A DNA stretch of 64,000 bases, taken from a virus. Shown piece by piece: positions 50,523-63,980 of this stretch. Location: the IMG/VR virus record IMGVR_UViG_3300045972_000140, positions 62,687 to 126,686 of that record; one strand, 5' to 3'. The position numbers were made by a program, and so were the translations under genes. Position 1 is the first letter of the stretch; each line of letters starts with the position of its first letter. The notes under the pieces are model-generated. The model saw nothing but the letters and a program-made list of their open reading frames with translations, did no database searches and was not told the DNA's origin.

Positions 50523-52149
50523 ATTTGATTTAACTATTCCAAGATCCAATGATGATCGTGTCCTACTGGCATTAGATAAAGATTGTCCAGTTGACGTACT
50601 ATATACAATGGCAAGATACGATACCGAAAGAGATGTAATGCTTGCGGTTGCATATAATGCAAATGTAACTCCCGAAATTATAAATGTTGTATTGGCAAAG
50701 TTGTCAATGACTGCTGAAGAACTTCAAGTAAAGATTGAACAATATAGGAAAGAAAACGTAATGAACGGTTTGCGGAGTACATTTTGTCCTATACCGTGGA
50801 ATCATGTGAGTACTAACCCCGAAGGAACAGTACGGGCATGTTGCCAAATATTAGATACCAATCAATACGGTACAGCCAATATTGTAAAGGACGACGGCAC
50901 TACATTAACCGGCGCTGATGATTTAACCCAGCACCGAAATGCACCTTTATGGAAATCATTGAGAAGTCAATTCATAAAAGGTGAAAAACCAGAATTATGT
51001 AAACTATGCTGGGACGAGGAATCTAACGGTGTTAATAGTCATAGACAACGAACCTCAAAACTATTTCCTGCAATAATATCTAATGCTGTAAAAAATACAA
51101 ATCTCGACGGTACTATCAAACACATCGATTTTCCTATAGAGTATTGGGATTTACGTTTCGGGAATAATTGTAATCTAAAATGCAGAACGTGTAGCCCGGT
51201 TTCGAGCAATAGTTGGTACAATGATTATATTGCTCTTGCATCTGAAGAAAAGTTAGTCGAAACATTTAAACCGTATATTACTATCGAAAAAATGGATAAC
51301 GGCAAAACTAAGATTACCGATACATATAATTGGTACGACGATAGCAAGATGTGGCAAACTATTATCGACGGTCTCGATCATACTACTAGATTCTATTTCA
51401 CAGGCGGCGAGCCGACTATAAATCAAAAGCATAAAGAACTTCTAAAAATAATTATAGACAGGGGATTGGCTAAAAATATCAACCTAGACTATAATACAAA
51501 TGTTGCAGGCATTCCTAGCGACATGTTTAATTTATGGGCTAATTTTAAAACTGTGAATCTCGGAATGAGTGTCGACGGAATTTATGAACATTTTGAATAT
51601 ATTAGAAACCCGGGTAAATGGTCTGCTGCTGAACGTACATTGCAGAAGATAGATTCTGCACACAATCTAACAAACATAACTGCTGCCTTTTCTGTAACAG
51701 TTAGTACATTAAATGTTTTACACATATTAGATATGCAATGGTGGATGAAAGAACAAAATTGGAAACGAATTATTCCTGCGTTAACACTACATACATTATA
51801 TAAGCCGTACATGTACAATATTCAATATCTCCCCGAAGAGATGAAGTTTTACATTACAAAACGATACACACAATTTATAAACGATATTGTAAGATGTTTC
51901 CCGGACGATGTTGCGTTTATTTCGGTTGTTAGAAAGCAGTGCTCGTCGGTAATAAATTATATGAATGCAGAGACACATGCAAGGCATACATGGAATGAGT
52001 TTGTTGAGTTTTCGGACAGGTTAGACGTTATTCGTGGCGAGAGTTGGAGAGAAAGTTTATCAGAACTCGTAACTCTAGAAGAATATTTTCATACTACTCG
52101 TAAACAAGCCCCTATTATTAAATTACAGGCTACCGAAAAGAAAATATGA
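50512..52149 (+). CDS. Radical SAM enzyme with N-terminal twitch-like domain
   Basis: FCPIPWNH...RACC...CKLCW, then CNLKCRTCSP..S..W, FTGGEPT, YNTN. Confidence 0.9.
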   Translation: MNDKFDLTIPRSNDDRVLLALDKDCPVDVLYTMARYDTERDVMLAVAYNANVTPEIINVVLAKLSMTAEELQVKIEQYRKENVMNGLRSTFCPIPWNHVSTNPEGTVRACCQILDTNQYGTANIVKDDGTTLTGADDLTQHRNAPLWKSLRSQFIKGEKPELCKLCWDEESNGVNSHRQRTSKLFPAIISNAVKNTNLDGTIKHIDFPIEYWDLRFGNNCNLKCRTCSPVSSNSWYNDYIALASEEKLVETFKPYITIEKMDNGKTKITDTYNWYDDSKMWQTIIDGLDHTTRFYFTGGEPTINQKHKELLKIIIDRGLAKNINLDYNTNVAGIPSDMFNLWANFKTVNLGMSVDGIYEHFEYIRNPGKWSAAERTLQKIDSAHNLTNITAAFSVTVSTLNVLHILDMQWWMKEQNWKRIIPALTLHTLYKPYMYNIQYLPEEMKFYITKRYTQFINDIVRCFPDDVAFISVVRKQCSSVINYMNAETHARHTWNEFVEFSDRLDVIRGESWRESLSELVTLEEYFHTTRKQAPIIKLQATEKKI

Positions 52150-54194
52150 AAGATGAACCAATAGTATTTAATAGCAGCGACCGTGATCAAGTTCTGTTGA
52201 CGATGATAGAACATGATTCCGTTAGGCACGCTAATTCCCACTTAGGTGATTCATCTGTTAAAAAAAGAGCATACACCTACAAAAGCGAAATACATCATCC
52301 TCGTGGGTACAAATACTACTCTGAGTTTCGTCCGTTCAGTGTTAACCGAGATAGTATAAGTTTAGTAATGGCCCCTGCCTGGGGAGTTATCTTTCCTCCG
52401 TATAATATTGCTAGGCTATCAGCAATGATACGTAAGCATGGTTATACTGTCAATGTTCACGACGTTAATATTGATTGTTATAATTATGTAATGGACAATA
52501 ACGGAATTGATTATTGGGACGGGGTATATTACTACGCTTGGTTGCTTCCTAAGTTTGAAACCGTAATATTACCTGCCATAAAAAGTGTACTTGATACCGC
52601 AGTTGACAATATTTTGGCCGATAATACTGATATTATTGGTTTTAGTATATATAATACTAATTTAATGGCAACATTATATATGATCAAGCAAATTCGGGAA
52701 AAGAAGCCTGCTGTTACTATAGTAGTCGGCGGCCCCGAAGCATTTGACGATGAGCTTCCCGATAGATTAAGGAATCGTCATCATGTACCAGATGGATCAA
52801 TTAATTATAGAATTAAAGGTGAAGGTGAACATGAAATTTTATTGCTATTAGAGAAATTCAGGGATCTGCCAAAGAATCGGGATTTAGTAGTATTCGGCGA
52901 ACTAAACAGTCGATTAAATTTAAATGAGTTACCGTTTCCCGATTATACCGACTACGATTTGTCGTTATACAAGCAACCAGACGGTGTTAGTATCGAGACA
53001 AGCAGAGGATGTATTGCACAGTGTAGTTTTTGTTCCGAGACATGGTTCTGGAAATTCAGATGGAGGACGTCCGATAGGATAGTTGCAGAAATGCAATACC
53101 AAATTGAAACATATAACATTAACAGATTTTGGTTTGTTGATAGTCTAGTAAACGGTAACCTTAAAGAATTTAGCAGACTTGTTGATTTGATTTTAGAAAA
53201 ACAACTCAATATTAGATGGAACAGTTATGCAAGATGCGACGGTCGAATGGATTTAGATTTTTTTGATAGAATTGCAAAAAGTGGATGTATGGCACTTAGT
53301 TTCGGAGTCGAATCAGGAAGCAAGGTTGTACTAGATGCAATGAAGAAGAAAATCGAAGTTAAGGAAATAGAAGATAATTTGCGCGATGGACATCTAGTTG
53401 GGTTAAAGAATCATGTAAACTGGTTAGTAGGATTTCCACAAGAAGGTCCTGCAGAATTCTTGCATAGCTTACACGTACTACATAATTGCAGAAAATGGAT
53501 GTATGTCATTAGTCCCGGCTTCACGTGCGGTGATGCTGCATTTTCTGATATGCATATAAATTGGAAGGACTACGATATTGCATGGGTTAACAAGCCGCTT
53601 GACAATACATTCTTAGATACATGGTATACAACTGGTTACAAGAACACAATGGTACATCGGTTTATTCGTTTAAAATTTATGCAAATATGGCTAAAATTAG
53701 CAACGACCGCCGGCGAGGGTACAGTCATCAATACACAGGCCTCGCCGGGCCTTAGTTCGTTATATACTATTAATTTATTAGATAAATCACACGGTATTGT
53801 AGACTACTTACCGCAACAGCATAATCAACAATTTGATTATTTTAGCGGTACCACACCTCAAGCACAACTAGCTGCGTCTCTTGCCAACGAATTCTTACCG
53901 TATGCTTGGATCACATATAACGTGTACGGTGGATTTGAAATGTCCATAGAATTTGATTTTGAAAAGGATCTTATAGAATTTAATAATACTATTGTTCGCG
54001 AATACTATGCAACAGTGAATATTAAGGTATCTAACGCCGGTCAACTAGAATTTAATGTAACACATAGATTTAATCACGGTAAGACACATGATTACAAACA
54101 CGCAGACATTACAAAAGTAATCCCAATTGATATGTCATTTACGGAAACTATTCATAGTGTTATTTGCCCGATTAGTATATTTGACGGAGTATAA
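52146..54194 (+). CDS. Cobalamin-binding radical SAM enzyme (class B methyltransferase-like)
   Basis: PPYNIARL, IIGFS, VVGGP, GEGE, ETSRGCIAQCSFC, GVESGS, VGFP. Confidence 0.9.
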   Translation: MKDEPIVFNSSDRDQVLLTMIEHDSVRHANSHLGDSSVKKRAYTYKSEIHHPRGYKYYSEFRPFSVNRDSISLVMAPAWGVIFPPYNIARLSAMIRKHGYTVNVHDVNIDCYNYVMDNNGIDYWDGVYYYAWLLPKFETVILPAIKSVLDTAVDNILADNTDIIGFSIYNTNLMATLYMIKQIREKKPAVTIVVGGPEAFDDELPDRLRNRHHVPDGSINYRIKGEGEHEILLLLEKFRDLPKNRDLVVFGELNSRLNLNELPFPDYTDYDLSLYKQPDGVSIETSRGCIAQCSFCSETWFWKFRWRTSDRIVAEMQYQIETYNINRFWFVDSLVNGNLKEFSRLVDLILEKQLNIRWNSYARCDGRMDLDFFDRIAKSGCMALSFGVESGSKVVLDAMKKKIEVKEIEDNLRDGHLVGLKNHVNWLVGFPQEGPAEFLHSLHVLHNCRKWMYVISPGFTCGDAAFSDMHINWKDYDIAWVNKPLDNTFLDTWYTTGYKNTMVHRFIRLKFMQIWLKLATTAGEGTVINTQASPGLSSLYTINLLDKSHGIVDYLPQQHNQQFDYFSGTTPQAQLAASLANEFLPYAWITYNVYGGFEMSIEFDFEKDLIEFNNTIVREYYATVNIKVSNAGQLEFNVTHRFNHGKTHDYKHADITKVIPIDMSFTETIHSVICPISIFDGV

Positions 54195-54199
54195 GTATA

Positions 54200-54931
54200 A
54201 TGGCACAATTTATTGTAATTTTAAGTCAGCATAGATCGGGATCTAACTATCTAAGTGATATTCTTAGGGCAAATTTTGATATTCGGTCCATGTTTGAGTT
54301 ATATAACAATAACAGTGATTTATCAAATTTAGATACACTATCTACATCAGAGCGCGTCGAATTAAAGAAGATACTTATTAACGAAAATGCGTCTGATAAT
54401 GAATTATCAAAATATATAGAGGATAATCCAGAACAATTGTTTGATGCTATTGATAAATTAGTTACCGGTGTAATATCTTTTAAAATTTTAGCAACTCATT
54501 TGTTAAATGGCCGCCTTGACTGGGTTTTTACAAAACCTAATTGTAATTTTATATTGTTGACAAGAACATCAACTATCGAAATGTTTATTAGTTTACAGCT
54601 TGCGTTGATGCAGGATAAATGGGAAAGCACTGATACAAGCGATAAGAAAATATCAATAGACCCTGTAAATTTTATTAAGTTCAAGCATAACACAACGTAC
54701 TGCAATAATTTATTTAGATACCATATACACAAGAAAGAATATCTACCACTAGTCTATGAAGAGTTGTCAAGTAGTAAGGATGCAATTAAGAAGTGGGCCA
54801 ATAAATTAAATATTATGCTACCAGAAAAAACTCGGCCCGAATCTCTATTTTTTAAAAAACAACAGAAGTCCTTGCCGAGCGATATTATTATAAACTACAG
54901 CGATATTGTAAAATATATAGATAATTTTTAA
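54200..54931 (+). CDS. Sulfotransferase (Stf0-like)
   Basis: ILSQHRSGSNYL 5'-PSB loop, ELY, SFK, ILLTR...FISLQLA, VYEEL. Confidence 0.75.
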   Translation: MAQFIVILSQHRSGSNYLSDILRANFDIRSMFELYNNNSDLSNLDTLSTSERVELKKILINENASDNELSKYIEDNPEQLFDAIDKLVTGVISFKILATHLLNGRLDWVFTKPNCNFILLTRTSTIEMFISLQLALMQDKWESTDTSDKKISIDPVNFIKFKHNTTYCNNLFRYHIHKKEYLPLVYEELSSSKDAIKKWANKLNIMLPEKTRPESLFFKKQQKSLPSDIIINYSDIVKYIDNF

Positions 54932-55548
54932 TTATTTAGGCCACTCACTCTCCTGACAGTATAATCAAGATCTTGTGTATTGCACGCTGTAAAATATTTG
55001 CTATTAGAATTATTTTTTAAAATATCTTCTACTTTTAAATTATCGTCGCTAACCGGAAACTGTAGTAAAGACGATAGGCTCTGTAGGTAAGGCATTCGAT
55101 ATAGGTATATTAGTTCCTGGCTAATGTAGATCGGATTGAGGCCAGATAAATACGGTAGTTGTGATTCGAAGTCACATAGACTTATTCTACCACGAACACG
55201 TGACTGTTGATGTTCTAATATATTTCTGTCTCTTCCGACAATTGCGAACTTTGTATTATACCCTAAGCTATTCGCCGAATCTATAAACGATTTATAATCC
55301 GGTATAACAGTCTGCCCTTTATATGCGTACGGTGCGCTTATACTTGTTACAGCAAAGTTATCAAAATGTATATCTTTAAGTAATGTAGGTTCGTGCCATG
55401 CATTAGCAAATGGTTCTTTATCGTGGCCTATCCAGTATTCTTGCAGTAGTTCACTCCACCCAAAAACATCTGGATGAAGTGAAAATAATTTACTAAACAG
55501 ATGATTGCCCGACCCTTGCGGGCCGGTAACTATCAACAATGTCTTCAC
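54928..55548 (-). CDS. Sulfotransferase-like P-loop protein
   Basis: LIVTGPQGSGNHLFSKLFSLHPDV; GTG start coupled to the upstream gene. Confidence 0.6.
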   Translation of the reverse strand: MKTLLIVTGPQGSGNHLFSKLFSLHPDVFGWSELLQEYWIGHDKEPFANAWHEPTLLKDIHFDNFAVTSISAPYAYKGQTVIPDYKSFIDSANSLGYNTKFAIVGRDRNILEHQQSRVRGRISLCDFESQLPYLSGLNPIYISQELIYLYRMPYLQSLSSLLQFPVSDDNLKVEDILKNNSNSKYFTACNTQDLDYTVRRVSGLNN

Positions 55549-56225
55549 AATTTAAAGGATGTTGTATTCTTTAGTTTTAACAGGAACTCTTCTGTTGCCG
55601 GAGTTCTGTTACCTGTGATTTGCAATGTCACTCGTGGATCGTAACCTGCATTAGCTGTGCTGTGCGGGATGTTTTGCCAATCGAATGTAACGCAATCACC
55701 AGCAGCCCAACGGTTGTGATGGAAGTTACCGTATTCCCAAAACTGTCCTGGCTTCCAATCTGTCAACTGAATGAAGATACGGATAATCTTAGTAGGGTCT
55801 TCGGGGTTCCACTTTTGCAGTTTGTCGATATGCAAGTTCCACATCTCGCCTGGCATCTGTACGTGAATGCGGTTCATTGTCTTTTCCAATGCAAACGCAT
55901 CAGAAATGTCCAGTAAGCATTGTGGGATCTTCCAGTTCAAATGGGACACAGTAAACTTTGGGTCGTATCCTGCACGTTCCAAATCGGCTTCTTCTTTTTC
56001 TAGTTCTTCGGGTGGAGCTTCAATGCCCTCACCTTTGTAACCACGGGTAGCCCAGTTTGCAGGACGAGAGTTTTTAACAATGTCTGCAATTTCGTTTGCC
56101 CATACATTTTCGAACTTACCCAGTCCCACAGCCATGTCCCAACGCGCATCTATTTTTGTTGGGTCGAAGTGGTACGCGCTCTTGGCTTTAGTTTCGTCCC
56201 ATGACGATAGTTTTGTCGTTGTCAT
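55545..56225 (-). CDS. Fe(II)/2-oxoglutarate dioxygenase-like (cupin) protein
   Basis: Facial-triad pattern PGEMWNLHID...IPHSTANAG..PRVTLQITG (HxD...H...R). Confidence 0.7.
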   Translation of the reverse strand: MTTTKLSSWDETKAKSAYHFDPTKIDARWDMAVGLGKFENVWANEIADIVKNSRPANWATRGYKGEGIEAPPEELEKEEADLERAGYDPKFTVSHLNWKIPQCLLDISDAFALEKTMNRIHVQMPGEMWNLHIDKLQKWNPEDPTKIIRIFIQLTDWKPGQFWEYGNFHHNRWAAGDCVTFDWQNIPHSTANAGYDPRVTLQITGNRTPATEEFLLKLKNTTSFKL

Positions 56226-56860
56226 ATTAAATTTACCTTTACATCTGATGTTTCATAATGCTGCCTATATTCAGCCGGGGGATATGTGATGCCTAATGCA
56301 TCACACAGTTGGAGGTTAGTACGAATGTCCGTGTGCTCAAACACAAAATGTTTGCGTTCAGCTTCTAAAATTCCTGCGTTTTGTTGTGATATAATCTTGC
56401 CCATCTCGCGCAAGTTTACATAGTATTTATGGTACAGTGGGTAAGTTATCGCAAAGTGACCACACTTCACCCACCAGCCCAAACATTGGTCATCGTCCCT
56501 GTACACTAATACGATAGGACACTCGGGCCATGTTTTCTTAATGAAGTCAATGTGATTAGCAAAGCAATGAGACTTGATGATGCGTACACCGGTCCCAGAG
56601 AATGGGCGATCAAATTCTGCCTCGCACTCTTCTTTAGTAAACAAATTAAGTCTATCAAAAAAAGACCCAAACTCCATCCCTGGGTCAAAATACGCCCCCA
56701 TATGCAGCAATTCCATTTTGCCTGTTGCATCGTGCGAGTATAATCGCTCTTCGCTATAATCAGTATTGTCTATGTCCCTGGAATAGTAGATGTTTTTGCT
56801 TACGCTACTCCATCTACTTCCAGGAGCGCCTATAATGAAAATGTACTTATAGACGGGCAT
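56222..56860 (-). CDS. Sulfotransferase/P-loop-like protein
   Basis: IFIIGAPGSRWSSV, IIKSH, IVLVYR. Confidence 0.55.
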   Translation of the reverse strand: MPVYKYIFIIGAPGSRWSSVSKNIYYSRDIDNTDYSEERLYSHDATGKMELLHMGAYFDPGMEFGSFFDRLNLFTKEECEAEFDRPFSGTGVRIIKSHCFANHIDFIKKTWPECPIVLVYRDDDQCLGWWVKCGHFAITYPLYHKYYVNLREMGKIISQQNAGILEAERKHFVFEHTDIRTNLQLCDALGITYPPAEYRQHYETSDVKVNLI

Positions 56861-56861
56861 G

Positions 56862-57920
56862 TTAGTGCGCTACCTTGGCGATATTGTCTTTGTAGATCGC
56901 TTCTTGGTTCAGCACAGTAGAAATCCACCATACTAAATCTTTCAGCGCCTTGCGTGTAGTTAACGCTTCCAATGCCTTGTGTGCTTTTGCAACGTCGTTG
57001 CCAATGAACCATTTGTATTTGCCAGTTTCCTTTTCGATGATAGCAAGCGATACTGGATCAGCTAATGTTTCACGTAATGCCTTACGCAATACTTCCCTGT
57101 TAGGATTACCGTGGTCAACATACAATGCCTTTTGCAATACATCACGGTAGTTCTTAATAAGCACCCATGTATCGTATAAATCGCCAGACGGTGCCTCGCC
57201 CCACTTCTTTTGGTACACAGCACGGAAGTCAACTCCTGGGAAGTTAGGGTCAACTGCAATTTTACCAGTCTTCAAATCCAAAACACCTGGATCAAACCAG
57301 TCTACGTTTTGTGGCATAGGACGAATGTTTTTCAAATACGCAGACGGTGTCTCACGAATTGCGTTAACTTCGCCGCGCAGGTATGACAGTTTACGCTCGT
57401 TGCCTGTCATACCGCGCACATATTTGAAATGTTCGTTATAACATGCTGCATATTGCTGCATTGTTTTCCCGGGACCACACACAAGTAATGTCATTGCAAT
57501 AATGTCCGGATTTGTACCTGATGCTGCTGGAAACTTAACTACATCCTTAAACGGATCTGAATCATTGCGACGTCCTACCATAATTGTTAAATTTTGTAAT
57601 CCGATTGGATCGTACAGGGCGTAGTCGTAATCTACGGTTTGATACAGAAAAGATTCTGCGTTGCCTCCGTGTGCAACCATAACCGTCTTTGGGTCTTTGC
57701 GTAGTGAGTTATGGAATTTGTTGAAGCCCGGAATATCGTTTGCTCCCGGAATATTTTCTACTACAATTTTTTCGCCTAATTTCTTTTCCATTTCTCGTGC
57801 AACAATACGTGCCCAAATATCTGTTCCGTTGCCGGGTTCCTGTGGTACAATGAACCTGTAATCTGCATGAGCAATTGCCGCTGTGCTGACGAGTAGTGTT
57901 ATTAAAAGTTTCTTAAACAT
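56862..57920 (-). CDS. tctC: Tripartite tricarboxylate transporter substrate-binding protein (TctC/Bug family)
   Basis: Signal peptide MFKKLLITLLVSTAAIAHA; FIVPQEPGNGTDIWARIVA...VVENIPGA matches the TctC N-terminus. Confidence 0.8.
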   Translation of the reverse strand: MFKKLLITLLVSTAAIAHADYRFIVPQEPGNGTDIWARIVAREMEKKLGEKIVVENIPGANDIPGFNKFHNSLRKDPKTVMVAHGGNAESFLYQTVDYDYALYDPIGLQNLTIMVGRRNDSDPFKDVVKFPAASGTNPDIIAMTLLVCGPGKTMQQYAACYNEHFKYVRGMTGNERKLSYLRGEVNAIRETPSAYLKNIRPMPQNVDWFDPGVLDLKTGKIAVDPNFPGVDFRAVYQKKWGEAPSGDLYDTWVLIKNYRDVLQKALYVDHGNPNREVLRKALRETLADPVSLAIIEKETGKYKWFIGNDVAKAHKALEALTTRKALKDLVWWISTVLNQEAIYKDNIAKVAH

Positions 57921-59361
57921 ATTTGATTGTTGCCTTATTAAAAAATATTCCATAGATAGCTGCAACTATTGCAACTACTATTAATGTGCCACTTATTGGC
58001 CGTGTAAACAGGTCGTGCCACTCATACAATGACATAAATTGTATGAGTGTGGTGTATGCTCTGTTAGCTAAAACAAACCCTATTATGACTGCCGCCCTGC
58101 TTAATTTAAAATATTTGAAGAACATGCCCAATGCTGCGCACCCGAAGAACATTACATAATCTTCCCAATATCCTGTATATTGCACACACGACCAAAGTAA
58201 TAATGCAAGTATTGGCCAGAAATAATACTTAAACGGTGTATTCATTATTCGTATTGCATAACGTATGAAGAGTACGCCTAAGAAGAATGTCAATATAAGA
58301 GCAACAAAATAACTACTACCGAGCACTGTAAAGAATGTCATATTAGTAAGTAAGTCGGGAGAACCTAATTCTATACCTACCATCATAAACAACGACATCA
58401 CAATAGCCTCAAACGGAGCAGCAGGAATACCAAATAATACAGTAGGAACATACGCTGTTGCCTTCTGCGCGTTGTTAGTACCTTCACATCCGATAACACC
58501 GCGCACATTGCCTTCGCCAAATGGGATTTCGTCTTTAGGGTTTGCTGCTACCGTTTGCCCGTACGCTAGCCAGTCTGCAATGCTGCCGCCGATACCGGGT
58601 AGGATGCCAATGAACGCACCAATTGCACCGCCCCGGAAGCCGTCCCACTTATACTTCCATGCATCTCTTACACCCTGTTTCATCTGCGGCCATACTTTAT
58701 CTGCATCTACCTTTGTTGTTTCGACTTTAGAGAAATATGCTTCTATCAATTCAGGAATGGCCATAAACCCGGCCAGCACCGGGGCTATCTGTATTCCTGC
58801 CTGTAAATAATCCCATCCACCAGTAAATCGCGCACCTAGGGTTATTGGATTTTGTCCCACTAATCCGAGGAAGCAACCAGCGGCCAGCGCAAGTATGCCA
58901 CGGAACCAATATTCGGAATTAACAAATGTAACACAGGTAAATGCAAGAAGCATGAATGCAAGCATCTCGGGGATTCCTAATGCCAGTACTACTGAACCAT
59001 AGTACGGAAGAAAAAAGAATACAAGGCCTCCCCAGAATATACCATTTACAGTCGATGTAGTAGTGCCTGCCATTAATGCACGAGCACCTTCGCCACGTCG
59101 GGCCATGGGAAACCCATCTACCATGCTTGCTGCGCTGCCAGCAGCGCCAGGTATGTTCATTGTAATAGACGAAAAGCCATCACCTATTGCACACGATACA
59201 ACAATAGCAGTTGTAAAAACTACAAGGAGCATTGGATCATGCAAGAAAAATCCTAGCATACCGTAAACTGCTACGAGCCCTGTTGCTGCACCGGCTACCG
59301 GAATAATACCTATTACAAAACCATAAACTGTACCCAGGAGTAACCAAACTATGTATTCCAT
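57913..59361 (-). CDS. tctA: Tripartite tricarboxylate transporter permease (TctA family)
   Basis: Multi-pass membrane protein; NIPGAAGSAASMVDGFPMARRGEGARAL, IGILPGIGGS, EGTNNA, LFGIP. Confidence 0.9.
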   Translation of the reverse strand: MEYIVWLLLGTVYGFVIGIIPVAGAATGLVAVYGMLGFFLHDPMLLVVFTTAIVVSCAIGDGFSSITMNIPGAAGSAASMVDGFPMARRGEGARALMAGTTTSTVNGIFWGGLVFFFLPYYGSVVLALGIPEMLAFMLLAFTCVTFVNSEYWFRGILALAAGCFLGLVGQNPITLGARFTGGWDYLQAGIQIAPVLAGFMAIPELIEAYFSKVETTKVDADKVWPQMKQGVRDAWKYKWDGFRGGAIGAFIGILPGIGGSIADWLAYGQTVAANPKDEIPFGEGNVRGVIGCEGTNNAQKATAYVPTVLFGIPAAPFEAIVMSLFMMVGIELGSPDLLTNMTFFTVLGSSYFVALILTFFLGVLFIRYAIRIMNTPFKYYFWPILALLLWSCVQYTGYWEDYVMFFGCAALGMFFKYFKLSRAAVIIGFVLANRAYTTLIQFMSLYEWHDLFTRPISGTLIVVAIVAAIYGIFFNKATIKYV

Positions 59362-59385
59362 TTAAATTTCTTAATAATTTTTCTA

Positions 59386-59414
59386 ATTATACAGCAATTA
59401 TGCTGATCCTGCAA
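59386..59414 (-). promoter_or_regulatory. Sigma70-type promoter of the tctA operon, with a palindrome in the spacer
   Basis: TTGCAG-N17-TATAAT on the minus strand; the spacer contains CAGCA-ATTA-TGCTG (59392-59405). Confidence 0.7.
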
Positions 59415-59422
59415 GCACTCGT

Positions 59423-59475
59423 TATAAATATAGTATATAGGGACAAAAATTTTTACTCTATATCTATTATTTATA
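59423..59475. promoter_or_regulatory. Face-to-face canonical T4 late promoter motifs TATAAATA
   Basis: TATAAATA on + at 59423-59430 and on - at 59468-59475. Confidence 0.5.
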
Positions 59476-59495
59476 CATTTTAAAGAAAATTTACC

Positions 59496-60227
59496 GTGAA
59501 TACAAAAATTTTAGCACTTATTGAGAAAAATCTTAAAGAAGCGTTTCATTTACCAAAATACGATGGTGTTGTTACTATTGATAAAGATACGGTAGTTAAT
59601 GATTTGCCGTGGACACCTGCACAGTATCGTAAGTTTAAAGATACAATGGAAGCCGAATTGAGCCTAATATCGGACTACGTAGGAACAATAGAATCTATAG
59701 TCAACGACCTCGACCAACGTTACTTAACACGATTCTTTGGAGAGATCTGGAGGCCTAATACCGACTTGTACCAATATACTGGATGGAATTTAGTCGAAGA
59801 AATATCTAAAATGGATCCGCAGAATGTCCTAGATGTTGGATGCGGATATCATCCGTTTAAGGGCAAAATTAACAACTTAATCGGTATAGACCCGTTTAAT
59901 AGTGCAGCAGAATATCAAGTTGATATTCTCGACTACAAAGTGAAACCAGGGTCTCACGATCATATTATGGCGCTAGGCTCTATTAATTTCAACTCAAGGG
60001 AAGATATTGAATCACGCTTCTTGCATTGTGTTAATTTGTTACAAGTTGGCGGACATTTATGGATGCGGGCCAATCCCGGTGTTACACACAAGACCGGTCC
60101 GTATGTGGATATTTTTAATTGGACATTTGAAATTGTTGTCGAACTTGGCAACAAATATGGCTTAAAATTACTTAATTTTAAGAAAGATTCAAATAACAGA
60201 TTATTTTTTGTTTATAAGAAACTATAA
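59496..60227 (+). CDS. Class I SAM-dependent methyltransferase with an extra N-terminal domain
   Basis: VLDVGCG, LIGIDP, ALGSINF; GTG start. Confidence 0.8.
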   Translation: MNTKILALIEKNLKEAFHLPKYDGVVTIDKDTVVNDLPWTPAQYRKFKDTMEAELSLISDYVGTIESIVNDLDQRYLTRFFGEIWRPNTDLYQYTGWNLVEEISKMDPQNVLDVGCGYHPFKGKINNLIGIDPFNSAAEYQVDILDYKVKPGSHDHIMALGSINFNSREDIESRFLHCVNLLQVGGHLWMRANPGVTHKTGPYVDIFNWTFEIVVELGNKYGLKLLNFKKDSNNRLFFVYKKL

Positions 60228-60605
60228 TTAGCGCCTCATTCTAGCAATATCGGCAGCATCCTCGGTTCTAAACACAGGTACCGCATTACTCTTATGCAGT
60301 TGCCCGATGCCTAACATTTCTGTGCCAGTGTATTGCATAATCTCTTGCTTAGAACAATCTCCACCAGGAGTGACCATACTAGGGATATTTTTAGGTACTA
60401 CCCTGGATGTACCCATTGCAGGCATAATAGATTCCTGTTTAAATACTTTACGAATTATTTTCTTAGGTTCGTATTTCTTTTGAATCTCTTCCCACTCGCG
60501 TGCAAGCTGTTCTGCTTTATGCTTTGCTTCCGAAGATGCAAATTTATGTTTACCCTTTTTCTTTCCGGTCAGGGTTAAGCCCGGGTTCTCTAAGTGCATA
60601 CTCAT
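60228..60605 (-). CDS. Conserved phage hypothetical protein
   Basis: C-terminal YTGTEMLGIGQLHKSNAVPVF...ADIARMRR motif, familiar from T4-like phages. Confidence 0.7.
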   Translation of the reverse strand: MSMHLENPGLTLTGKKKGKHKFASSEAKHKAEQLAREWEEIQKKYEPKKIIRKVFKQESIMPAMGTSRVVPKNIPSMVTPGGDCSKQEIMQYTGTEMLGIGQLHKSNAVPVFRTEDAADIARMRR

Positions 60606-60811
60606 AAAAGACCGTAACTTTCTCTAATTAAGAAATTAATTCGTTCTACAGCTTCGTGTAGCGTTGTATATTTTCCGGAATCAACATGATGAACATAGTG
60701 CATCATGTCATTGACAAGTAACTCAACTAATGCTTCTATTTGCATTTCGGTGACAGGTTGCCCCGGTACTAAACCTGCTATATCGGCCACAACTTGAGTT
60801 CTAGGGTGCAT
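60602..60811 (-). CDS. Hypothetical protein
   Basis: 69-aa ORF coupled to its neighbours. Confidence 0.6.
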   Translation of the reverse strand: MHPRTQVVADIAGLVPGQPVTEMQIEALVELLVNDMMHYVHHVDSGKYTTLHEAVERINFLIRESYGLL

Positions 60812-60814
60812 GCC

Positions 60815-61066
60815 TTATTTATCGGAATCGAACAAGCTATTACCGTATGCTTTTACTGCATTAGATGCACCTACTGCACCCGAACCAGCATCACCGTCAG
60901 CATAACTTCTTGCGTGATGTGCCGCTGCCGTAGCGCAGTCTTCGATAACAAGTTTAATCAATTTTTCCAGCGGCGCACCGACGATAGTTGATACAGGCCA
61001 GTAACCGGTTGTCTCGGTGCTAAAACCTGCGTTTTTGTATAGATTTTTTAACTTATCGTTTATCAT
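60815..61066 (-). CDS. Hypothetical protein
   Basis: 83 aa; LEKLIKLVIEDC motif; TAATG coupling with the upstream gene. Confidence 0.6.
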   Translation of the reverse strand: MINDKLKNLYKNAGFSTETTGYWPVSTIVGAPLEKLIKLVIEDCATAAAHHARSYADGDAGSGAVGASNAVKAYGNSLFDSDK

Positions 61067-61584
61067 TATACTCTCTTTAGTTGTGCAAACATTTTTAGTA
61101 ATGCTTCAGCATTACCTTTAGCATCATCCACAGGATTATGTGTATGCTTTGTTTCTCGCAGGTGTTTGAATGTACTATAAAGGTCACGCTGCATACCCTT
61201 ATAGAATGATCCCATATTAGCAGAACTCCACCCAAACGGATTGCGGCCCAACTGTTGCCAGAAGTAATAGTTAATGAATGCAAAATCGTATCCATTATTA
61301 TCGCTCCAGAAGATTGGGCGCTTACCATTGGGAATGTTTTTGTTCAACCAAATCTCGAAGTTCTGCATAGCATCACGCGGGTCAGGGAACTTCATGCAAT
61401 CTTCGCGACTGAATCCACTAATTGCTAACGCTTCGGGGATATAAATTTCGGAGACTGGTTTTAGTTCTGCGTAGAACGTTCGCTGCAGGCCTGCTTCGAC
61501 AATGACTGCTCCAAAGCAAATCATACTATGCATTCCGGGGCAAGGCCCATCCGACTCAACATCTACCATTACATTTTGCGACAT
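61066..61584 (-). CDS. DEDDh 3'-5' exonuclease
   Basis: VMVDVESDG, NNGYDFAF, HNPVDDA. Confidence 0.85.
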   Translation of the reverse strand: MSQNVMVDVESDGPCPGMHSMICFGAVIVEAGLQRTFYAELKPVSEIYIPEALAISGFSREDCMKFPDPRDAMQNFEIWLNKNIPNGKRPIFWSDNNGYDFAFINYYFWQQLGRNPFGWSSANMGSFYKGMQRDLYSTFKHLRETKHTHNPVDDAKGNAEALLKMFAQLKRV

Positions 61585-61603
61585 ATACTCTCCTATTAGA
61601 GTA

Positions 61604-61632
61604 AGTATACACTATATCTGTAATAAAATCAA
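61604..61632 (-). promoter_or_regulatory. Sigma70-type promoter upstream of the exonuclease gene
   Basis: TTGATT-N17-TATACT, followed by AGGAG SD. Confidence 0.65.
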
Positions 61633-61994
61633 CCTATAACTGTACCGTTCTGGTATGTGTTGCGTGGAATTGTTGGTAGGATAAGATACTGTAAGTCTAT
61701 CTGACTACGCGGATATTGTTGGAATACAACTTGCTGAATGATTGCAGCCGAACCGTATCTAACCATGAAACTAGCAAGGCCCAATGTTGTGTCTCTATCA
61801 AACACTGTATATACTAGGTTGCCTAATCCGTTATTGAGAGTCTGGAACCAATATACATTTGGGCCACCAAAGTCTCCGTATGGTATAACTGTGTTGGTGT
61901 TAATTGCGTTAACAACTGCCTGCACGTTTGCACCTAAAGCAACAAAGCCTTCTGTTGTGCAAACGCCAAATGTCTGAAAGGGATAATCCATCAA
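61629..61994 (-). CDS. Hypothetical protein, possibly late-expressed
   Basis: 121-aa ORF; GATAAATA on - at 61996-62003 directly abuts the start. Confidence 0.6.
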   Translation of the reverse strand: MMDYPFQTFGVCTTEGFVALGANVQAVVNAINTNTVIPYGDFGGPNVYWFQTLNNGLGNLVYTVFDRDTTLGLASFMVRYGSAAIIQQVVFQQYPRSQIDLQYLILPTIPRNTYQNGTVIG

Positions 61995-62255
61995 CTATTT
62001 ATCATTAAACTTTGTAGACAGTAAGGAACGAATATATGCTTTGATATTTGTTGCCGCCACTGCTATATTGCCAAATAAATGTAGTATGCAGAAAGTAGCA
62101 ATAATAGTCATTATGTTAGTGAACATAAGTGTAAGGAAGATCGATGTGACTCCTATTACTGCAGAAAGGCCACCAGTGATATGTGCTGTAATAAGGTAAC
62201 TCTCTAGTTCGTCCTTAGGTGCATACTTTAGCTTTTCAAACAGATCTTGTGCCAT
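61995..62255 (-). CDS. Small membrane protein with two hydrophobic segments
   Basis: MAQDLFEK...; hydrophobic stretches GLSAVIGVTSIFLTLMF and IIATFCILHLFGNIAV. Confidence 0.6.
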   Translation of the reverse strand: MAQDLFEKLKYAPKDELESYLITAHITGGLSAVIGVTSIFLTLMFTNIMTIIATFCILHLFGNIAVAATNIKAYIRSLLSTKFNDK

Positions 62256-62256
62256 A

Positions 62257-62418
62257 TTAACTTTCTTTGATATCAAAATATGCTTCGGTGAACATTTTAC
62301 CATTATACAGCAATTCTACTTTCCTGTAATCTGGATTCTCCGAAACAGTCTTTACATCTATAGTTATGTCTTTTAACATATTTTCTACAATGCGTTCTAC
62401 GTCAGATCTACTTAACAT
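62257..62418 (-). CDS. Hypothetical protein
   Basis: MLSRSDVER...; AAGGA SD before ATG 62418. Confidence 0.55.
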   Translation of the reverse strand: MLSRSDVERIVENMLKDITIDVKTVSENPDYRKVELLYNGKMFTEAYFDIKES

Positions 62419-62767
62419 TTCTATCCTTTGATTTTGATAATTCACCTGGCTCTGTGTTTCCCCACATTTCGATGCTTTCAATATGATCAAATGTACTATC
62501 GTCTATTATTTTATTTATAATGTCGTGTTGTCTACTGGTTAGGTCAGGTGCCTTCTTTACTATCCTGTTTGGCAGTGGTGGATTCTTAATTACAGGAACC
62601 TGCACCGGTGCCTTCTTTAATCTTTCTTCTCGTGCTAATCTATTAGCCTCTGATCTTGCGGCTGCTTCTTCTATGCGCCGTTGTTTCTTTGACCTAGAAT
62701 TAAGGTAAGAAATTATGGCAACCAGAATTATTGCTAACGGTACAATTACATATAAATTCAAAAACAC
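62408..62767 (-). CDS. Membrane-anchored hypothetical protein
   Basis: N-terminal TM helix followed by a basic coiled segment. Confidence 0.6.
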   Translation of the reverse strand: MFLNLYVIVPLAIILVAIISYLNSRSKKQRRIEEAAARSEANRLAREERLKKAPVQVPVIKNPPLPNRIVKKAPDLTSRQHDIINKIIDDSTFDHIESIEMWGNTEPGELSKSKDRNVK

Positions 62768-62976
62768 GACCCCGAAAATGCATATGCATCTTTAAAATTG
62801 TTAATCCAAAATCCACGAGGGATATTTACTCCATTATAGCAAAGTATTACAGAGTAGTCAAGGGTCCACGCATCAGAGGGCAAATTATTTGTTAACCAAT
62901 CATTAAGGAACAAATAATGGGAATATGCTTCTTTACAGTTTCTGCCGAGTAGCTCCTCAAAATAAAAATACACCAT
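62758..62976 (-). CDS. Small hypothetical protein (F..xDAxxF family)
   Basis: 72 aa; AAGG SD. Confidence 0.55.
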   Translation of the reverse strand: MVYFYFEELLGRNCKEAYSHYLFLNDWLTNNLPSDAWTLDYSVILCYNGVNIPRGFWINNFKDAYAFSGSCF

Positions 62977-63008
62977 ATCCTACCTTTGGCGTTAGCCGCA
63001 TAGGATAT

Positions 63009-63296
63009 TTATCTGAATTGAAATGCAAATAATGTAGCTACTTCGCGATCCTTGAAATACCAAAAGTGACTATTCTCGTTATGATTTCTTAATCTAAATG
63101 TTTGGATGTGATAATCATCACCGTACTCTAATCCCTGCTTTATACACCAGCGTGTCATATGTGCAGAGTGAGAATGCACTACAGCACGCGCCCAAGTATA
63201 GTTGCGCGTAGGATCCTCTTTCTCTATATGGGCAGTTATTATCCCATCTTGTACAGTTTCTAGTACTTCCTCACCGCCGATGATCATCCGCCCCAC
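63009..63296 (-). CDS. Small hypothetical protein (F..xDAxxF family)
   Basis: Ends WYFKDREVATLFAFQFR. Confidence 0.55.
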   Translation of the reverse strand: MGRMIIGGEEVLETVQDGIITAHIEKEDPTRNYTWARAVVHSHSAHMTRWCIKQGLEYGDDYHIQTFRLRNHNENSHFWYFKDREVATLFAFQFR

Positions 63297-63535
63297 CTCA
63301 ATATAAATGCTGTTAGTGCCTGTTCATCTAGAAATTCTAACCCGTATGCAATACGTGATCCTCTATCTATTAGTATATTTTGAGTTACTAATTTACACGG
63401 CCAACCTGCTGCGGTTAAACACGGAGCAATATCTTCTAATTCTAAAACTGTATTAGCACTCACGGCACCCACAGTTAGTACATTCTTAAAAACTCGCTGA
63501 CCTATAGGATCCAAAAATAATAATGTGCTAGTCAT
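63284..63535 (-). CDS. Small hypothetical protein (F..xDAxxF family)
   Basis: Ends LEFLDEQALTAFILRWGG. Confidence 0.55.
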   Translation of the reverse strand: MTSTLLFLDPIGQRVFKNVLTVGAVSANTVLELEDIAPCLTAAGWPCKLVTQNILIDRGSRIAYGLEFLDEQALTAFILRWGG

Positions 63536-63759
63536 ACACCGTGTGTCAATCTAAATAAAATTGCATCCTCGGATTGAGCAAAATAAAAGTCGACAGTTTT
63601 ATCGTCTGCGTTTATTTCTTTTTCCCACAGTACGCCCCTGCTACTTAAAGCATCTTCGCACCATTTTGTTAGGTTAAATACCTTGCCGATGCCCTCGTCG
63701 TATCTTTTACGATTACCCGACGGCATAGGTATAGGTATTTTATTTGGCCAATTTAACAT
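63532..63759 (-). CDS. Small hypothetical protein (F..xDAxxF family)
   Basis: Ends FYFAQSEDAILFRLTHGV. Confidence 0.55.
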   Translation of the reverse strand: MLNWPNKIPIPMPSGNRKRYDEGIGKVFNLTKWCEDALSSRGVLWEKEINADDKTVDFYFAQSEDAILFRLTHGV

Positions 63760-63980
63760 CTGAAGTCTACAAATCTTATCTGAATAAGTGTATCGTTTAT
63801 TATATACGGCAATATCTTCATTGCAATATCTGTTGCCCTATCTGATTTAGTGCAAACTGCTTCATACTTATTCAACACTATTGATTCTATTCTATCAGAG
63901 TTAAGTGCAATATCGCACTTTTCTCTTTCACACATAACTTTAATAACAATACGCACTATTGTTTTAAAGAATGAGTACAT
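63753..63980 (-). CDS. Hypothetical protein
   Basis: 75-aa ORF overlapping the next gene in the chain. Confidence 0.45.
   Translation of the reverse strand: MYSFFKTIVRIVIKVMCEREKCDIALNSDRIESIVLNKYEAVCTKSDRATDIAMKILPYIINDTLIQIRFVDFRC

Follow-up and report, generated by a model that had tools for sequence, protein, structure and literature searches.

Bacterial transporters of the TTT type (TC 2.A.80), such as Salmonella TctCBA and Bordetella BctCBA, combine a polytopic TctA permease carrying a glycine/proline motif with a TctC/Bug-family binding protein that is secreted and whose gene adjoins that of the permease. Where PMC5812351 deals with these systems, complete or orphan TTT genes are described as often adjoining enzymes that use the imported carboxylate, and the remaining component, TctB, as showing little conservation, having no known function, and being missing from archaea in which TctA occurs. 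The same source describes orphan Bug/TctC proteins of Betaproteobacteria (Bordetella and Cupriavidus) and the orphan AdpC of Rhodopseudomonas, which have no permease gene nearby and are adjoined by enzymes (PMC5812351).

The locus described here lies in a window of 64,000 nt, the whole stretch of DNA analyzed (positions 62,687 to 126,686 of IMG/VR record IMGVR_UViG_3300045972_000140). It shares with bacterial TTT loci the polytopic TctA with its motif, the adjacent gene for a secreted TctC/Bug-family protein, and the enzyme genes beside those of the transporter, but it differs in its gene order (A-C instead of C-B-A, with TctB not found), in its binding protein of about 350 aa, divergent enough to miss the Pfam cutoff, and in being virus encoded and restricted to phage contigs. 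Its TctA is at most 34% identical to the cellular homologs in the 61 Burkholderiales genomes sampled. The best cellular match (31% identity, 205 bits), found in a Burkholderiales genome (L115), adjoins a TctC-like gene 25% identical to that of the window, but the gene order is reversed, and the cellular TctA is longer (658 aa against 482 aa in the phage) and carries some 170 additional hydrophobic residues. This C-terminal membrane extension may stand in for TctB. Most relatives of the cassette are closer in layout to the orphan binding proteins, with no permease gene nearby and enzymes adjoining, but their orphan is encoded by the phage and would need a permease of the host to dock on; the orphan type had no match at an E value of ≤1e-20 in the same 61 genomes.

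Viruses that carry part of a host-type uptake system have been described before. Cyanophage PstS is the binding protein of an ABC system without its permease. On SUP05 viral contigs, tctA has been flagged as a putative viral auxiliary gene, with a role given as not known where these sources mention it (PMC4164917, PMC6359870). The cassette resembles both cases but differs from them in uniting permease and binding protein with tailoring enzymes in a single conserved unit. As for the enzymes, Ox shares its predicted fold and metal- and 2-oxoglutarate (2OG)-binding residues with the free-proline hydroxylases (1e5r and 4p7x), and P2 shares its predicted fold with PAPS-dependent sulfotransferases (TPST, Stf, and the olefin-synthase ST), but identity to the phage proteins is only 10 to 20%, and the phage Ox and sulfotransferase-like families are essentially viral and unannotated.

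Organization of the cassette

The earlier note had placed a minus-strand operon, TctA-TctC-P2-Ox-P1, and a divergent methyltransferase (MT) at window positions 54928-60227, and all six genes were found where it had put them (Table 1). Packing is tight, with overlaps of 8 nt between TctA and TctC and of 4 nt both between P2 and Ox and between Ox and P1, and a gap of 1 nt between TctC and P2. The stop codons of the operon and of the convergent plus-strand block overlap at 54928-54931. The region between TctA and MT, presumably the control region, is not long enough for a TctB gene; promoter-like matches were not enriched in 54000-61200 (18, versus 23.8 ± 4.6 in shuffles).

Table 1. Features of the cassette and its surroundings (window coordinates)
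Feature	Position	Strand	Basis or remark
Third sulfotransferase-like gene, outside the conserved module	54200..54931	+	Last gene of the convergent plus-strand block
P1, second sulfotransferase-like P-loop protein, 206 aa (putative)	54928..55548	-	TGPQGSGNH loop, Atlas
Ox, predicted Fe(II)/2OG-dependent oxygenase, 226 aa	55545..56225	-	AlphaFold2 model, structural matches, invariant residues
P2, predicted sulfotransferase-fold protein, 212 aa	56222..56860	-	AlphaFold2 model and structural matches; N-terminal GAPGSRWSS loop
TctC/Bug-family periplasmic solute-binding protein, divergent, 352 aa (predicted)	56862..57920	-	Profile matches, signal-peptide-like N terminus
TctA-family 12-TM-type permease, 482 aa	57913..59361	-	PF01970
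Divergent TctA-MT intergenic region, 134 nt	59362..59495		Sequence read
MT, predicted class I SAM-dependent methyltransferase	59496..60227	+	Divergent from the operon; motif I, Atlas

Transporter genes

TctA matches PF01970 over the entire profile (positions 1-423 of 423; E value of 1.1e-84, 285 bits against a cutoff of 28.9). It has at least nine strongly hydrophobic segments and carries a G-x3-G-x3-G-x2-P-G-x-G motif at residues 244-259 (GGAIGAFIGILPGIGG), and its homologs in viral contigs are 54 to 74% identical.

The mechanical ORF of TctC (56862-57965, minus strand) begins at a TTG at 57965, and its likely start is the ATG at 57920. Read from there, the N terminus looks like a signal peptide (MFKKLLITLLVSTAAIAHA, then DY), as had been claimed. 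As a single sequence, the protein scores 21.4 bits against PF03401, under the cutoff of 27. A profile of 14 sequences (A4) matches BugD (E value of 2.2e-5) and TctC 6hke (3e-4), as well as 2dvz, 4x9t, and Bug27, and comparison by hhalign with a bona fide phage TctC of the orphan type (L040; 66.8 bits against PF03401) gave an E value of 1.8e-5. Cys148 and Cys160 are invariant. Judged by these profile matches, the window TctC is a divergent member of the TctC/Bug family.

The lack of tctB that had been pointed out agrees with our searches, as PF07331 matched none of five phage records at an E value of ≤0.1, among them the present contig and a record of 383 kb with a completeness rating of 100%, and the operon offers no room for the gene. 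Because TctB is poorly conserved, it counts as not found, its absence being unproven, and a cryptic TctB or one borrowed from the host would be compatible with the null search. From its sequence, the window transporter appears to be a TctB-less two-component variant and not a full tripartite member of the TTT family. Complex prediction gave weak support to the pairing of TctA with TctC, with a score of 0.48 (best of three controls, 0.00), agreement between runs in at least 47% of contacts, and a partner pLDDT of at least 75. Of 80 solved complexes, 58 reach the same mark, as do 2 of 110 mismatched pairs; at scores of ≤0.60, only 7 of those 80 do so, together with both mismatches. These counts apply only roughly here since the alignments used were our own.

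Tailoring enzymes

P2, Ox, P1, and MT had no match in Pfam or PHROGs, and no sequence-level match to solved structures was found for Ox and P2. The AlphaFold2 model of Ox (mean pLDDT of 90.7) matched 2OG oxygenases or DSBH proteins in all 50 VIA-align matches listed, with 49 chains at a Z of ≥8, the best being proline 3-hydroxylase 1e5r (Z of 12.2, rmsd of 3.3, 149 residues aligned); Foldseek gave 221 matches at an E value of ≤1e-3. All 15 sequences compared share H132, D134, H188, and R198, and R198 would bind the C5 carboxylate of 2OG. The modeled structure is a double-stranded beta-helix with an HxD...H metal triad, in line with the dioxygenase first proposed from the sequence. The family is large and not covered by Pfam (1291 relatives at an E value of ≤1e-3, with a Pfam domain in 0 of the 120 matches listed).

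The six best VIA-align matches to the P2 model (mean pLDDT of 88.5) are all sulfotransferases, namely, TPST1 5wri (Z of 11.5, rmsd of 3.5, 169 residues aligned), TPST2 (10.9), tick TPST (10.7), the olefin-synthase ST (9.3), Stf9 (8.9), and Stf1 (8.6), all above the best kinase (8.4). Foldseek returned nothing at an E value of ≤1e-3, its best match being a sulfotransferase at 8.8e-3. Invariant residues are G11, P13, G14, S15, W17, S18, H53, and H98; the N-terminal G-x-P-G-S-x-W-S loop and S97-H98 are conserved, and the Arg that would fit the 3'-phosphate-binding (3'-PB) motif is not invariant. The loop may correspond to the 5'-phosphosulfate-binding (PSB) loop and H98 to the catalytic His. The modeled fold of P2 is the sulfotransferase P-loop fold.

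By its Atlas features, P1 seems to be sulfotransferase-like, its nearest cluster being a viral one of 9886 members (0.98), with sulfotransferase-annotated clusters at 0.94. Motif I of MT reads VLDVGCGY, with D113-x-G115-C-G117 invariant, and its nearest Atlas clusters are viral ones labeled AdoMet_MTases or class I SAM methyltransferase (score of 0.99); its profile (A7) had no significant PDB sequence match. The third sulfotransferase-like gene reached an E value of 1.1e-4 against PF13469 (Sulfotransfer_3; 23 bits, under the cutoff of 27), and a homolog was present in 0 of 18, 0 of 80, and 0 of 79 related loci.

Phage origin of the cassette

The source contig, rated 32% complete, is a fragment of a jumbo myophage whose major capsid protein is 77.7% identical to that of Pseudomonas phage PA5oct. 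Host DNA or an assembly chimera within the phage contig would be an alternative explanation of the module, and GC3, somewhat above that of the structural genes (0.39 versus 0.30; 0.47 in Ox and 0.45 in P2), could be read that way. Against it, the RSCU values of module and structural genes correlate at an r of 0.86, an independently assembled contig of 16,236 nt covers window positions 48000-63866 with 0 differences and spans both junctions, and two further pond metagenomes from other studies contain identical pieces inside and outside the module. Jumbo-phage contigs as long as 383 kb, their capsid genes 69 to 74% identical, contain the same module. Among one genome each of 185,579 species, TctC had only four close matches, all on contigs of metagenome-assembled genomes (MAGs) with the same module, three of these MAGs also holding a jumbo-phage capsid gene (70 to 71% identical); binned phage contigs aside, the cellular genomes searched contained no close relative. 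The artifact is refuted for practical purposes, and the phage-borne nature of the module that the earlier note had claimed is confirmed.

Conservation in related phages

Hundreds of viral contigs contain the cassette. A TctA relative is encoded in 408 of 452 pattern-matched viral stretches, and the best 79 of these loci contain TctC in 76 cases, MT in 70, P2 in 51, Ox in 41, and P1 in 22. Dereplication of TctA at 90% identity left 38 clusters, 33 of them evaluable; TctC is present in all 33 lineages, MT in 32, a sulfotransferase-like gene in 28, and Ox in 24, with the four together in 20. Homologs of the radical SAM genes of the window were near the module in only 4 of the 33, so the link to the radical SAM operon suggested previously is not general. 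A protein with a signal peptide and ending in ...F is encoded between TctA and TctC in 3 of the 33 lineages.

Seeding with Ox led to a different picture of the transporter part. At least 569 of at least 599 stretches encode an Ox relative, and in the best 80 of these loci P2 was found in 73, MT in 62, and P1 in 46, but TctA in only 6, while an orphan TctC-family protein occupies the same slot in 56. In 60 of the 67 evaluable loci, the gene immediately upstream of the enzyme block belongs to the TctC family (53 orphan and 7 window type). The earlier proposal of a unit of TctA and TctC plus enzymes thus stands as far as the joining of a TTT-type pair with the enzymes is concerned, but the conserved core is MT and the series TctC-family binding protein, P2, Ox, and P1, with TctA optional.

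When mapped on a P2 tree (92 rows), the type of binding protein shows 8 changes, of which supported branches force at least 5, compared with 30.6 ± 2.6 for shuffled labels. It follows that TTT binding proteins of both kinds have repeatedly refilled the slot, and the window and orphan types have been swapped at least five times.

Possible functions

We read the segment as one variant of a cassette conserved in a clade of uncultured jumbo myophages that combines a TTT uptake arm with a cytoplasmic tailoring arm, and we consider the chances of this reading to be even. In the envelope, the secreted TctC/Bug-family protein would capture a small organic acid in the periplasm and hand it to the phage-encoded TctA, which would presumably import it without a recognizable TctB; in most relatives, the orphan binding protein would have to use the TctAB of the host. 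In the cytoplasm, the Fe(II)/2OG oxygenase may hydroxylate the imported compound or a close derivative, after which one or two PAPS-type sulfotransferase-fold enzymes and the SAM methyltransferase might decorate it, in this presumed order and with these presumed cofactors.

Several observations count against such a pathway. Ox is not found near TctA in 9 of the 33 lineages and a sulfotransferase-like gene in 5, no binding protein was detected in 7 of the 67 evaluable Ox-seeded loci, and at one locus (L095) Ox stands by itself in unrelated surroundings; to these we add the window TctC falling under the Pfam threshold, the nonsignificant Foldseek result of P2, and the weak pass of the complex prediction. 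Moreover, proteins and not small acids are the substrates of the tyrosylprotein sulfotransferases that P2 resembles best in structure (Z of 10.7 to 11.5) and of many structural relatives of Ox, which matches prolyl and aspartyl hydroxylases (Z of 9 to 11) besides free-proline hydroxylases. This would suit two independent functions in one hypervariable island, in which TctA/TctC scavenges a common di- or tricarboxylate or an amino acid that fuels the infected cell and possibly supplies 2-oxoglutarate, while the enzymes modify a macromolecule, for example, a peptide, a glycan, or a protein of phage or host. Some loci (L002 and L003) have a single transporter but as many as four paralogs of Ox, at least three of P2, and three of MT, which resembles multisite tailoring of one scaffold. 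The Ox, P2, and MT of the window are nearer to their counterparts in orphan-SBP loci (median identities of 57, 59, and 64%) than to their counterparts in most TctA loci, so the two arms recombine. However, the position of a TTT binding protein directly upstream of the enzymes and its replacement in kind can hardly be accounted for unless the function is shared. The genes form a single operon with translational packing, and the window operon, which leaves no intergenic space, showed no conserved ORF for a small precursor peptide. We regard separate functions as the less likely reading.

Two narrower proposals concern what is imported. An organosulfur acid (a sulfonated or sulfated carboxylate) could be taken up and its sulfite or sulfate freed oxidatively by Ox, as TauD and AtsK do, with the sulfotransferase-fold proteins moving sulfuryl groups to or from PAP(S). 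PMC5812351 mentions TTT systems that serve sulfolactate and dithiodipropionate, each locus has several sulfotransferase-like genes, and a frequent neighbor contains an APS-kinase-like domain. The 2OG alkylsulfatase AtsK is the sole named enzyme among the very weak PDB matches of the Ox profile, but at an E value of 0.3 that match is not significant; Ox is structurally closest to proline hydroxylases and not to TauD-type enzymes, and MT, the most constant partner (32 of 33 lineages), would have no role, which makes sulfur scavenging improbable. The frequent neighbor just mentioned, a fused P-loop kinase and NMN-adenylyltransferase-like protein adjoining the module in 24 of the best 80 Ox-seeded loci and 7 of the 33 TctA lineages, could instead indicate capture of a pyridine carboxylate (nicotinate or quinolinate) to feed NAD+ reconstitution by the phage. 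Its C-terminal half matches NadM-type NMNAT (E value of 6.6e-6), and Bordetella Bug27 and Bug69 are reported in PMC11452294 to bind quinolinate with submicromolar affinity. Nevertheless, the fused gene was not found on the source contig at its 32% completeness, its kinase half resembles APS kinases (2yvu, E value of 1.3e-4; PAPSS1 kinase domains, 0.02 to 0.04) and not riboside kinases, and neither the oxygenase nor the sulfotransferase-like proteins nor MT would have a part in it, so NAD-precursor salvage seems quite improbable.

In the literature searched, we found no description of a conserved phage cassette that joins a TTT-type permease and binding protein to tailoring enzymes. As it recurs in many related phages, the cassette looks like an uptake-and-modification pathway run by the phage.

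Carrier phage and layout of the cassette

The window lies at the end of a viral metagenome contig of 126,686 bp, of which it makes up the last 64 kb; the contig has a completeness rating of 32%. Structural genes of T4-like type in the window specify the tail sheath, major head protein, portal, and baseplate hub and wedge. The major capsid protein shares 77.7% identity with its counterpart in the Pseudomonas jumbo phage PA5oct and 65 to 70% with the capsid proteins of further jumbo phages. Downstream of the gene for the baseplate wedge, an ORF of 2992 aa presumably codes for a fibre or other virion protein.

The cassette consists of a minus-strand operon coding for a TctA permease, a TctC-like binding protein, two sulfotransferase-like P-loop proteins (P2 and P1) and, between these, a predicted Fe(II)/2-oxoglutarate (2OG) oxygenase (Ox), together with a divergent gene for a predicted class I SAM methyltransferase (MT). 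The gene positions read by the earlier note were borne out, as all module genes were found at the coordinates listed in the table. Successive genes of the operon overlap or abut (8, 1, 4 and 4 nt), and a spacer of 134 nt separates it from MT. Scans for promoters (18 matches against 23.8 +/- 4.6 expected) and terminators (6 against 4.8 +/- 2.1) performed no better than chance. A plus-strand block that contains four radical SAM genes and ends in a gene with a weak sulfotransferase match converges on the operon; the stop codons of both overlap at 54928-54931, with no terminator-like hairpin between them. The radical SAM genes are accompanied by unannotated partners, homologous blocks are found in two related loci (L011 and L017), and the products include a twitch-domain radical SAM protein (NF033640, 344 bits, cut-off 170) and one that resembles B12-binding radical SAM methyltransferases.

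Features of the window and of related loci (L numbers) compared with it
Feature	Coordinates	Strand	Basis or remark
TctA	59361-57913	minus	PF01970
TctC-like protein	57920-56862 (from likely ATG)	minus	profile match to BugD/TctC structures
P2	56860-56222	minus	sulfotransferase fold by predicted structure
Ox	56225-55545	minus	2OG-oxygenase fold by predicted structure
P1	55548-54928	minus	Atlas features, sulfotransferase-like
MT	59496-60227	plus, divergent	motif I and Atlas clusters
Last gene of convergent block	54200-54931	plus	weak Sulfotransfer_3 match
Radical SAM genes and partners	46540-54194		four radical SAM genes
2992-aa ORF	29812-38790		no Pfam match
RNase T / Rv2179c-like 3'-5' exonuclease gene	61066-61584		downstream of module
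Orphan TctC-family protein, 327 aa	L040:6374-7357 (example)		PF03401
Kinase-adenylyltransferase fusion, ~285 aa (283-289)	L040:9259-10128, L004:8551-9402, others		directly adjoins module
Diiron/amidotransferase pair	L002:8750-10001, L043:3861-5142, others		between MT and transporter or enzymes
Signal-peptide/C-terminal-Phe proteins, ~195 aa	L006:11442-12029, L043:2455-3051		no Pfam match

The earlier note had raised the possibility that the module is host DNA or an assembly chimera, a reading that is now very hard to sustain, as a separately assembled 16,236-nt contig matches positions 48000-63866 with zero differences. Pond metagenomes contain DNA near-identical to the window, and in those of two other studies, identical fragments come from the module itself, the TctA/TctC junction among them, as well as from beyond it. 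In the composition comparison that the note had proposed, codon usage of the module and of the structural genes correlated well (r = 0.86), with a GC3 of 0.39 in the module versus 0.30 in the structural genes and the highest values in Ox (0.47) and P2 (0.45).

A tripartite-family transporter pair with no recognisable TctB

The identity of TctA is unambiguous, with a full-length match to PF01970 (E 1.1e-84); residues 244-259 form the conserved glycine/proline motif, and nine or more segments are strongly hydrophobic. The TctC-like protein falls below the Pfam threshold (21.4 versus 27 bits); it has a signal-peptide-like N terminus and two invariant cysteines, and a profile built from 14 TctC sequences matches BugD (2.2e-5), a TctC subunit (3e-4), 2dvz, 4x9t and Bug27. 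Prediction of a TctA-TctC complex gave a weak pass (0.48, versus 0.00 for three controls), on a scale whose calibration applies only approximately to the custom alignments used. One phage locus, L163, carries two tandem TctA-TctC pairs.

In line with the earlier note, which saw no tctB, a search for TctB (PF07331) gave no match in the contig of the window or in any of four records of related phages, among them a 383-kb record rated 100% complete. Both the permease and the binding protein are of tripartite tricarboxylate transporter (TTT) families; as no TctB was found, the module is filed as a TctB-less variant and not as a full tripartite member. In one view of the family, transport depends at its core on TctA, with TctB in an accessory role (PMC5812351).

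Enzymes of the cassette

None of the six module proteins matched a PHROGs family, and searches of the PDB by sequence and profile gave nothing significant for the enzymes (best E values of 0.2 for Ox, 0.54 for P2, 1.2 for P1 and 0.022 for MT). Ox has no Pfam match, and its predicted structure (mean pLDDT 90.7) adopts a 2OG-oxygenase fold, with proline 3-hydroxylase as the top VIA-align match (Z 12.2, rmsd 3.3, 149 residues); all 50 matches listed belong to the 2OG-oxygenase superfamily, and Foldseek returned 221 matches at E <= 1e-3. Residues H132, D134, H188 and R198 are invariant among 15 sequences. The family comprises at least 1291 clusters, and a Pfam domain was assigned to none of the 120 listed.

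For P2 (pLDDT 88.5), sulfotransferases take the first six places in VIA-align (Z 11.5 to 8.6, with the best kinase at 8.4); Foldseek gave nothing significant, although its top rows were nonetheless sulfotransferases. The Atlas features of P1 lead to a viral cluster of 9886 members, and clusters annotated as sulfotransferases score 0.94. In MT, motif I (DxGCG) is invariant, and its Atlas neighbours are viral AdoMet-methyltransferase clusters. Because hhalign comparisons of P2 with P1 and of P2 with the gene starting at 54200 were not significant, these three P-loop proteins cannot be claimed as paralogues. The enzyme families of the module are large, almost purely viral and unannotated.

Linkage in other phages and the conserved core

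An initial scan with the TctA protein yielded 18 viral loci, nearly all of which held MT, TctA, TctC, Ox and P2 or P1 together. A TctA profile scan of the viral contig collection then gave 408 TctA-encoding stretches; among the best 79 of these, TctC was present in 76, MT in 70, P2 in 51, Ox in 41 and P1 in 22. Dereplication at 90% TctA identity left 38 clusters, 33 of them with sufficient flank, and the linkage that the earlier note had wanted checked was recovered in these lineages: TctC in 33/33, MT in 32/33, a sulfotransferase-like gene in 28/33, Ox in 24/33 and all four in 20/33. The carrier contigs reach 383 kb, and three of five long records tested have capsid genes 69 to 74% identical to that of the window, a fourth giving a short weak match only. 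The note's observation of the module stood, and its interpretation in part. The convergence with the neighbouring radical SAM operon in the window is not a general link, since homologues of those genes lie near the module in only 4 of the 33 lineages.

When loci were collected by Ox, a different picture of the transporter arm was obtained. At least 569 viral stretches contain Ox relatives, and the 80 best of these have P2 (73), MT (62) and P1 (46), while TctA is found in only 6 and the window type of TctC in 10. Most of these 80 code instead for a 327-aa secreted protein between MT and P2, with no permease gene nearby. This orphan is a bona fide member of the TctC family (66.8 bits, with a signal peptide) and occupies the slot filled by TctA-TctC in the window, even though the two types of binding protein are only distantly alike (hhalign E 1.8e-5). 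A TctC-family gene lies directly upstream of the enzyme block in 60 of the 67 Ox-seeded loci having enough upstream sequence (53 of orphan type, 7 of window type). The conserved core is therefore MT, divergent from TTT binding protein-P2-Ox-P1.

On a FastTree phylogeny of P2 (92 rows), the type of binding protein switches 8 times, with supported branches requiring at least 5 of the switches, whereas shuffled labels give 30.6 +/- 2.6; the count is approximate because of some long branches and possible paralogues among the rows. The slot is therefore refilled repeatedly by a TTT binding protein, with its own permease present or absent. Ox, P2 and MT of the window are nearer to loci of the orphan type than to most TctA loci, which, together with the elevated GC3 of Ox and P2, suggests that the enzyme block was recently exchanged between phages.

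Phage specificity

The TctC profile was searched against 185,579 species of bacteria and archaea, each represented by one genome, and only four close relatives were found, all on contigs of metagenome-assembled genomes (MAGs) that carry the module. These MAGs (L021-L024) are assigned to unrelated taxa (Polynucleobacter, Weeksellaceae, Chitinophagales and Legionellales), and since three of the four also contain a jumbo-phage capsid gene (70 to 71% identical), the module there probably stems from phage DNA that was placed in bacterial bins. Among the 61 Burkholderiales genomes sampled, the top match to TctA was 31% identical (highest identity, 34%), a protein of 658 aa with an added hydrophobic C-terminal tail, and the gene beside it is TctC-like (25% identity). 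For the orphan binding protein, these genomes gave no match at E <= 1e-20 and hence no pointer to a host. One of the 61 is flagged as unpublished, and no result depends solely on it.

Among cultured phages (INPHARED), TctA was found in only 7 records at 24 to 28% identity, several of them not convincing phage records; Ox gave a single weak partial match to a cyanophage 2OG oxygenase, P2 matched two records, both of one uncultured marine virus, and a DNA search with window positions 54000-61000 gave no match. Judged by these sequence searches, the cassette is widespread and phage-specific.

Published SUP05 viral contigs include one mention of tctA, by a protein-domain match alone and with no role assigned in that passage (PMC4164917), which recurs in a table of PMC6359870. 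Our literature search, which covered article text, turned up no account of the cassette, its enzyme families or a TctC encoded by a phage; AMG tables in supplements, such as those of PMC4164917, may hold related contigs.

Accessory genes

A ferritin-like diiron protein with weak matches to AurF and the RNR small chain is paired with a class I glutamine-amidotransferase/peptidase C26-like protein in 7 of the 33 TctA lineages. In 3 of the 33, a signal-peptide protein with a terminal Phe lies between TctA and TctC and may be a small outer-membrane barrel; no counterpart of the representative in L006 was found on the window's contig. The accessory genes further include additional sulfotransferase-like genes and a cupin. 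L002 and L003 show expansion of paralogues beside one transporter, with runs of as many as four genes for Ox, four for P2-like proteins and three for MT.

A P-loop kinase fused to an NMNAT-like adenylyltransferase is present in 7 of the 33 TctA lineages and in 24 of the 80 best Ox-seeded loci, and was not found on the window's contig. Its N-terminal domain is nearest to APS kinases (E 1.3e-4 to 0.07) and its C-terminal HxGH domain to NadM NMN adenylyltransferase (6.6e-6). In L004 and L040, where the protein at first sight resembles an APS kinase, a part in PAPS synthesis is kept as a lead rather than a finding, given the NadM-like C-terminal half. The fusion might serve either sulfuryl-donor supply or NAD metabolism.

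Possible function of the cassette

We give about even chances to a coupled model, in which the transporter imports an organic acid and the module enzymes modify the imported compound. During infection, the phage would secrete the binding protein and insert TctA, and the two would import the acid without TctB, which fits the view of TctA as the core transporter and the weak pass of the complex prediction. In the cytoplasm, the compound would be hydroxylated by Ox and modified by MT and the sulfotransferase-fold proteins. The strongest argument that envelope arm and enzymes act together is the repeated refilling of the binding-protein slot, and the cassette parallels bacterial TTT loci, in which orphan or complete TTT genes lie beside enzymes using the imported carboxylate (PMC5812351). 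The repeated refilling also speaks against the rather unlikely alternative of two independent functions, with enzymes that act on a protein or other polymer; the modelled resemblance of P2 to tyrosylprotein sulfotransferases and of Ox to prolyl hydroxylases would favour it, as would the paralogue expansions in L002 and L003.

A more specific and speculative proposal is that in an abundant clade of freshwater jumbo phages an exogenous acid is hydroxylated, O-sulfated and methylated into a phage-specific sulfated metabolite for host takeover, anti-defence or signalling. The acid would be captured by the secreted receptor, in some lineages with a permease and an outer-membrane channel, and the APS-kinase-like/adenylyltransferase-like fusion may be the compact enzyme with which the phage supplies the sulfuryl donor. 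As the role of the module, sulfur scavenging and NAD-precursor salvage both appear improbable.

When phages carry auxiliary genes for transport, these mostly code for one part of a host system. In the present case, one virus carries permease, binding protein and tailoring enzymes as a single conserved cassette. The cassette is frequent among viral metagenome contigs, with 408 stretches encoding TctA and at least 569 encoding Ox. A TTT system without a recognisable TctB would bear on whether TctA is the core transporter. The identity of the ligand would reveal an environmental compound needed by these phages and the sulfated or methylated product made from it, and would open an experimental route to TctB-independent TTT transport.
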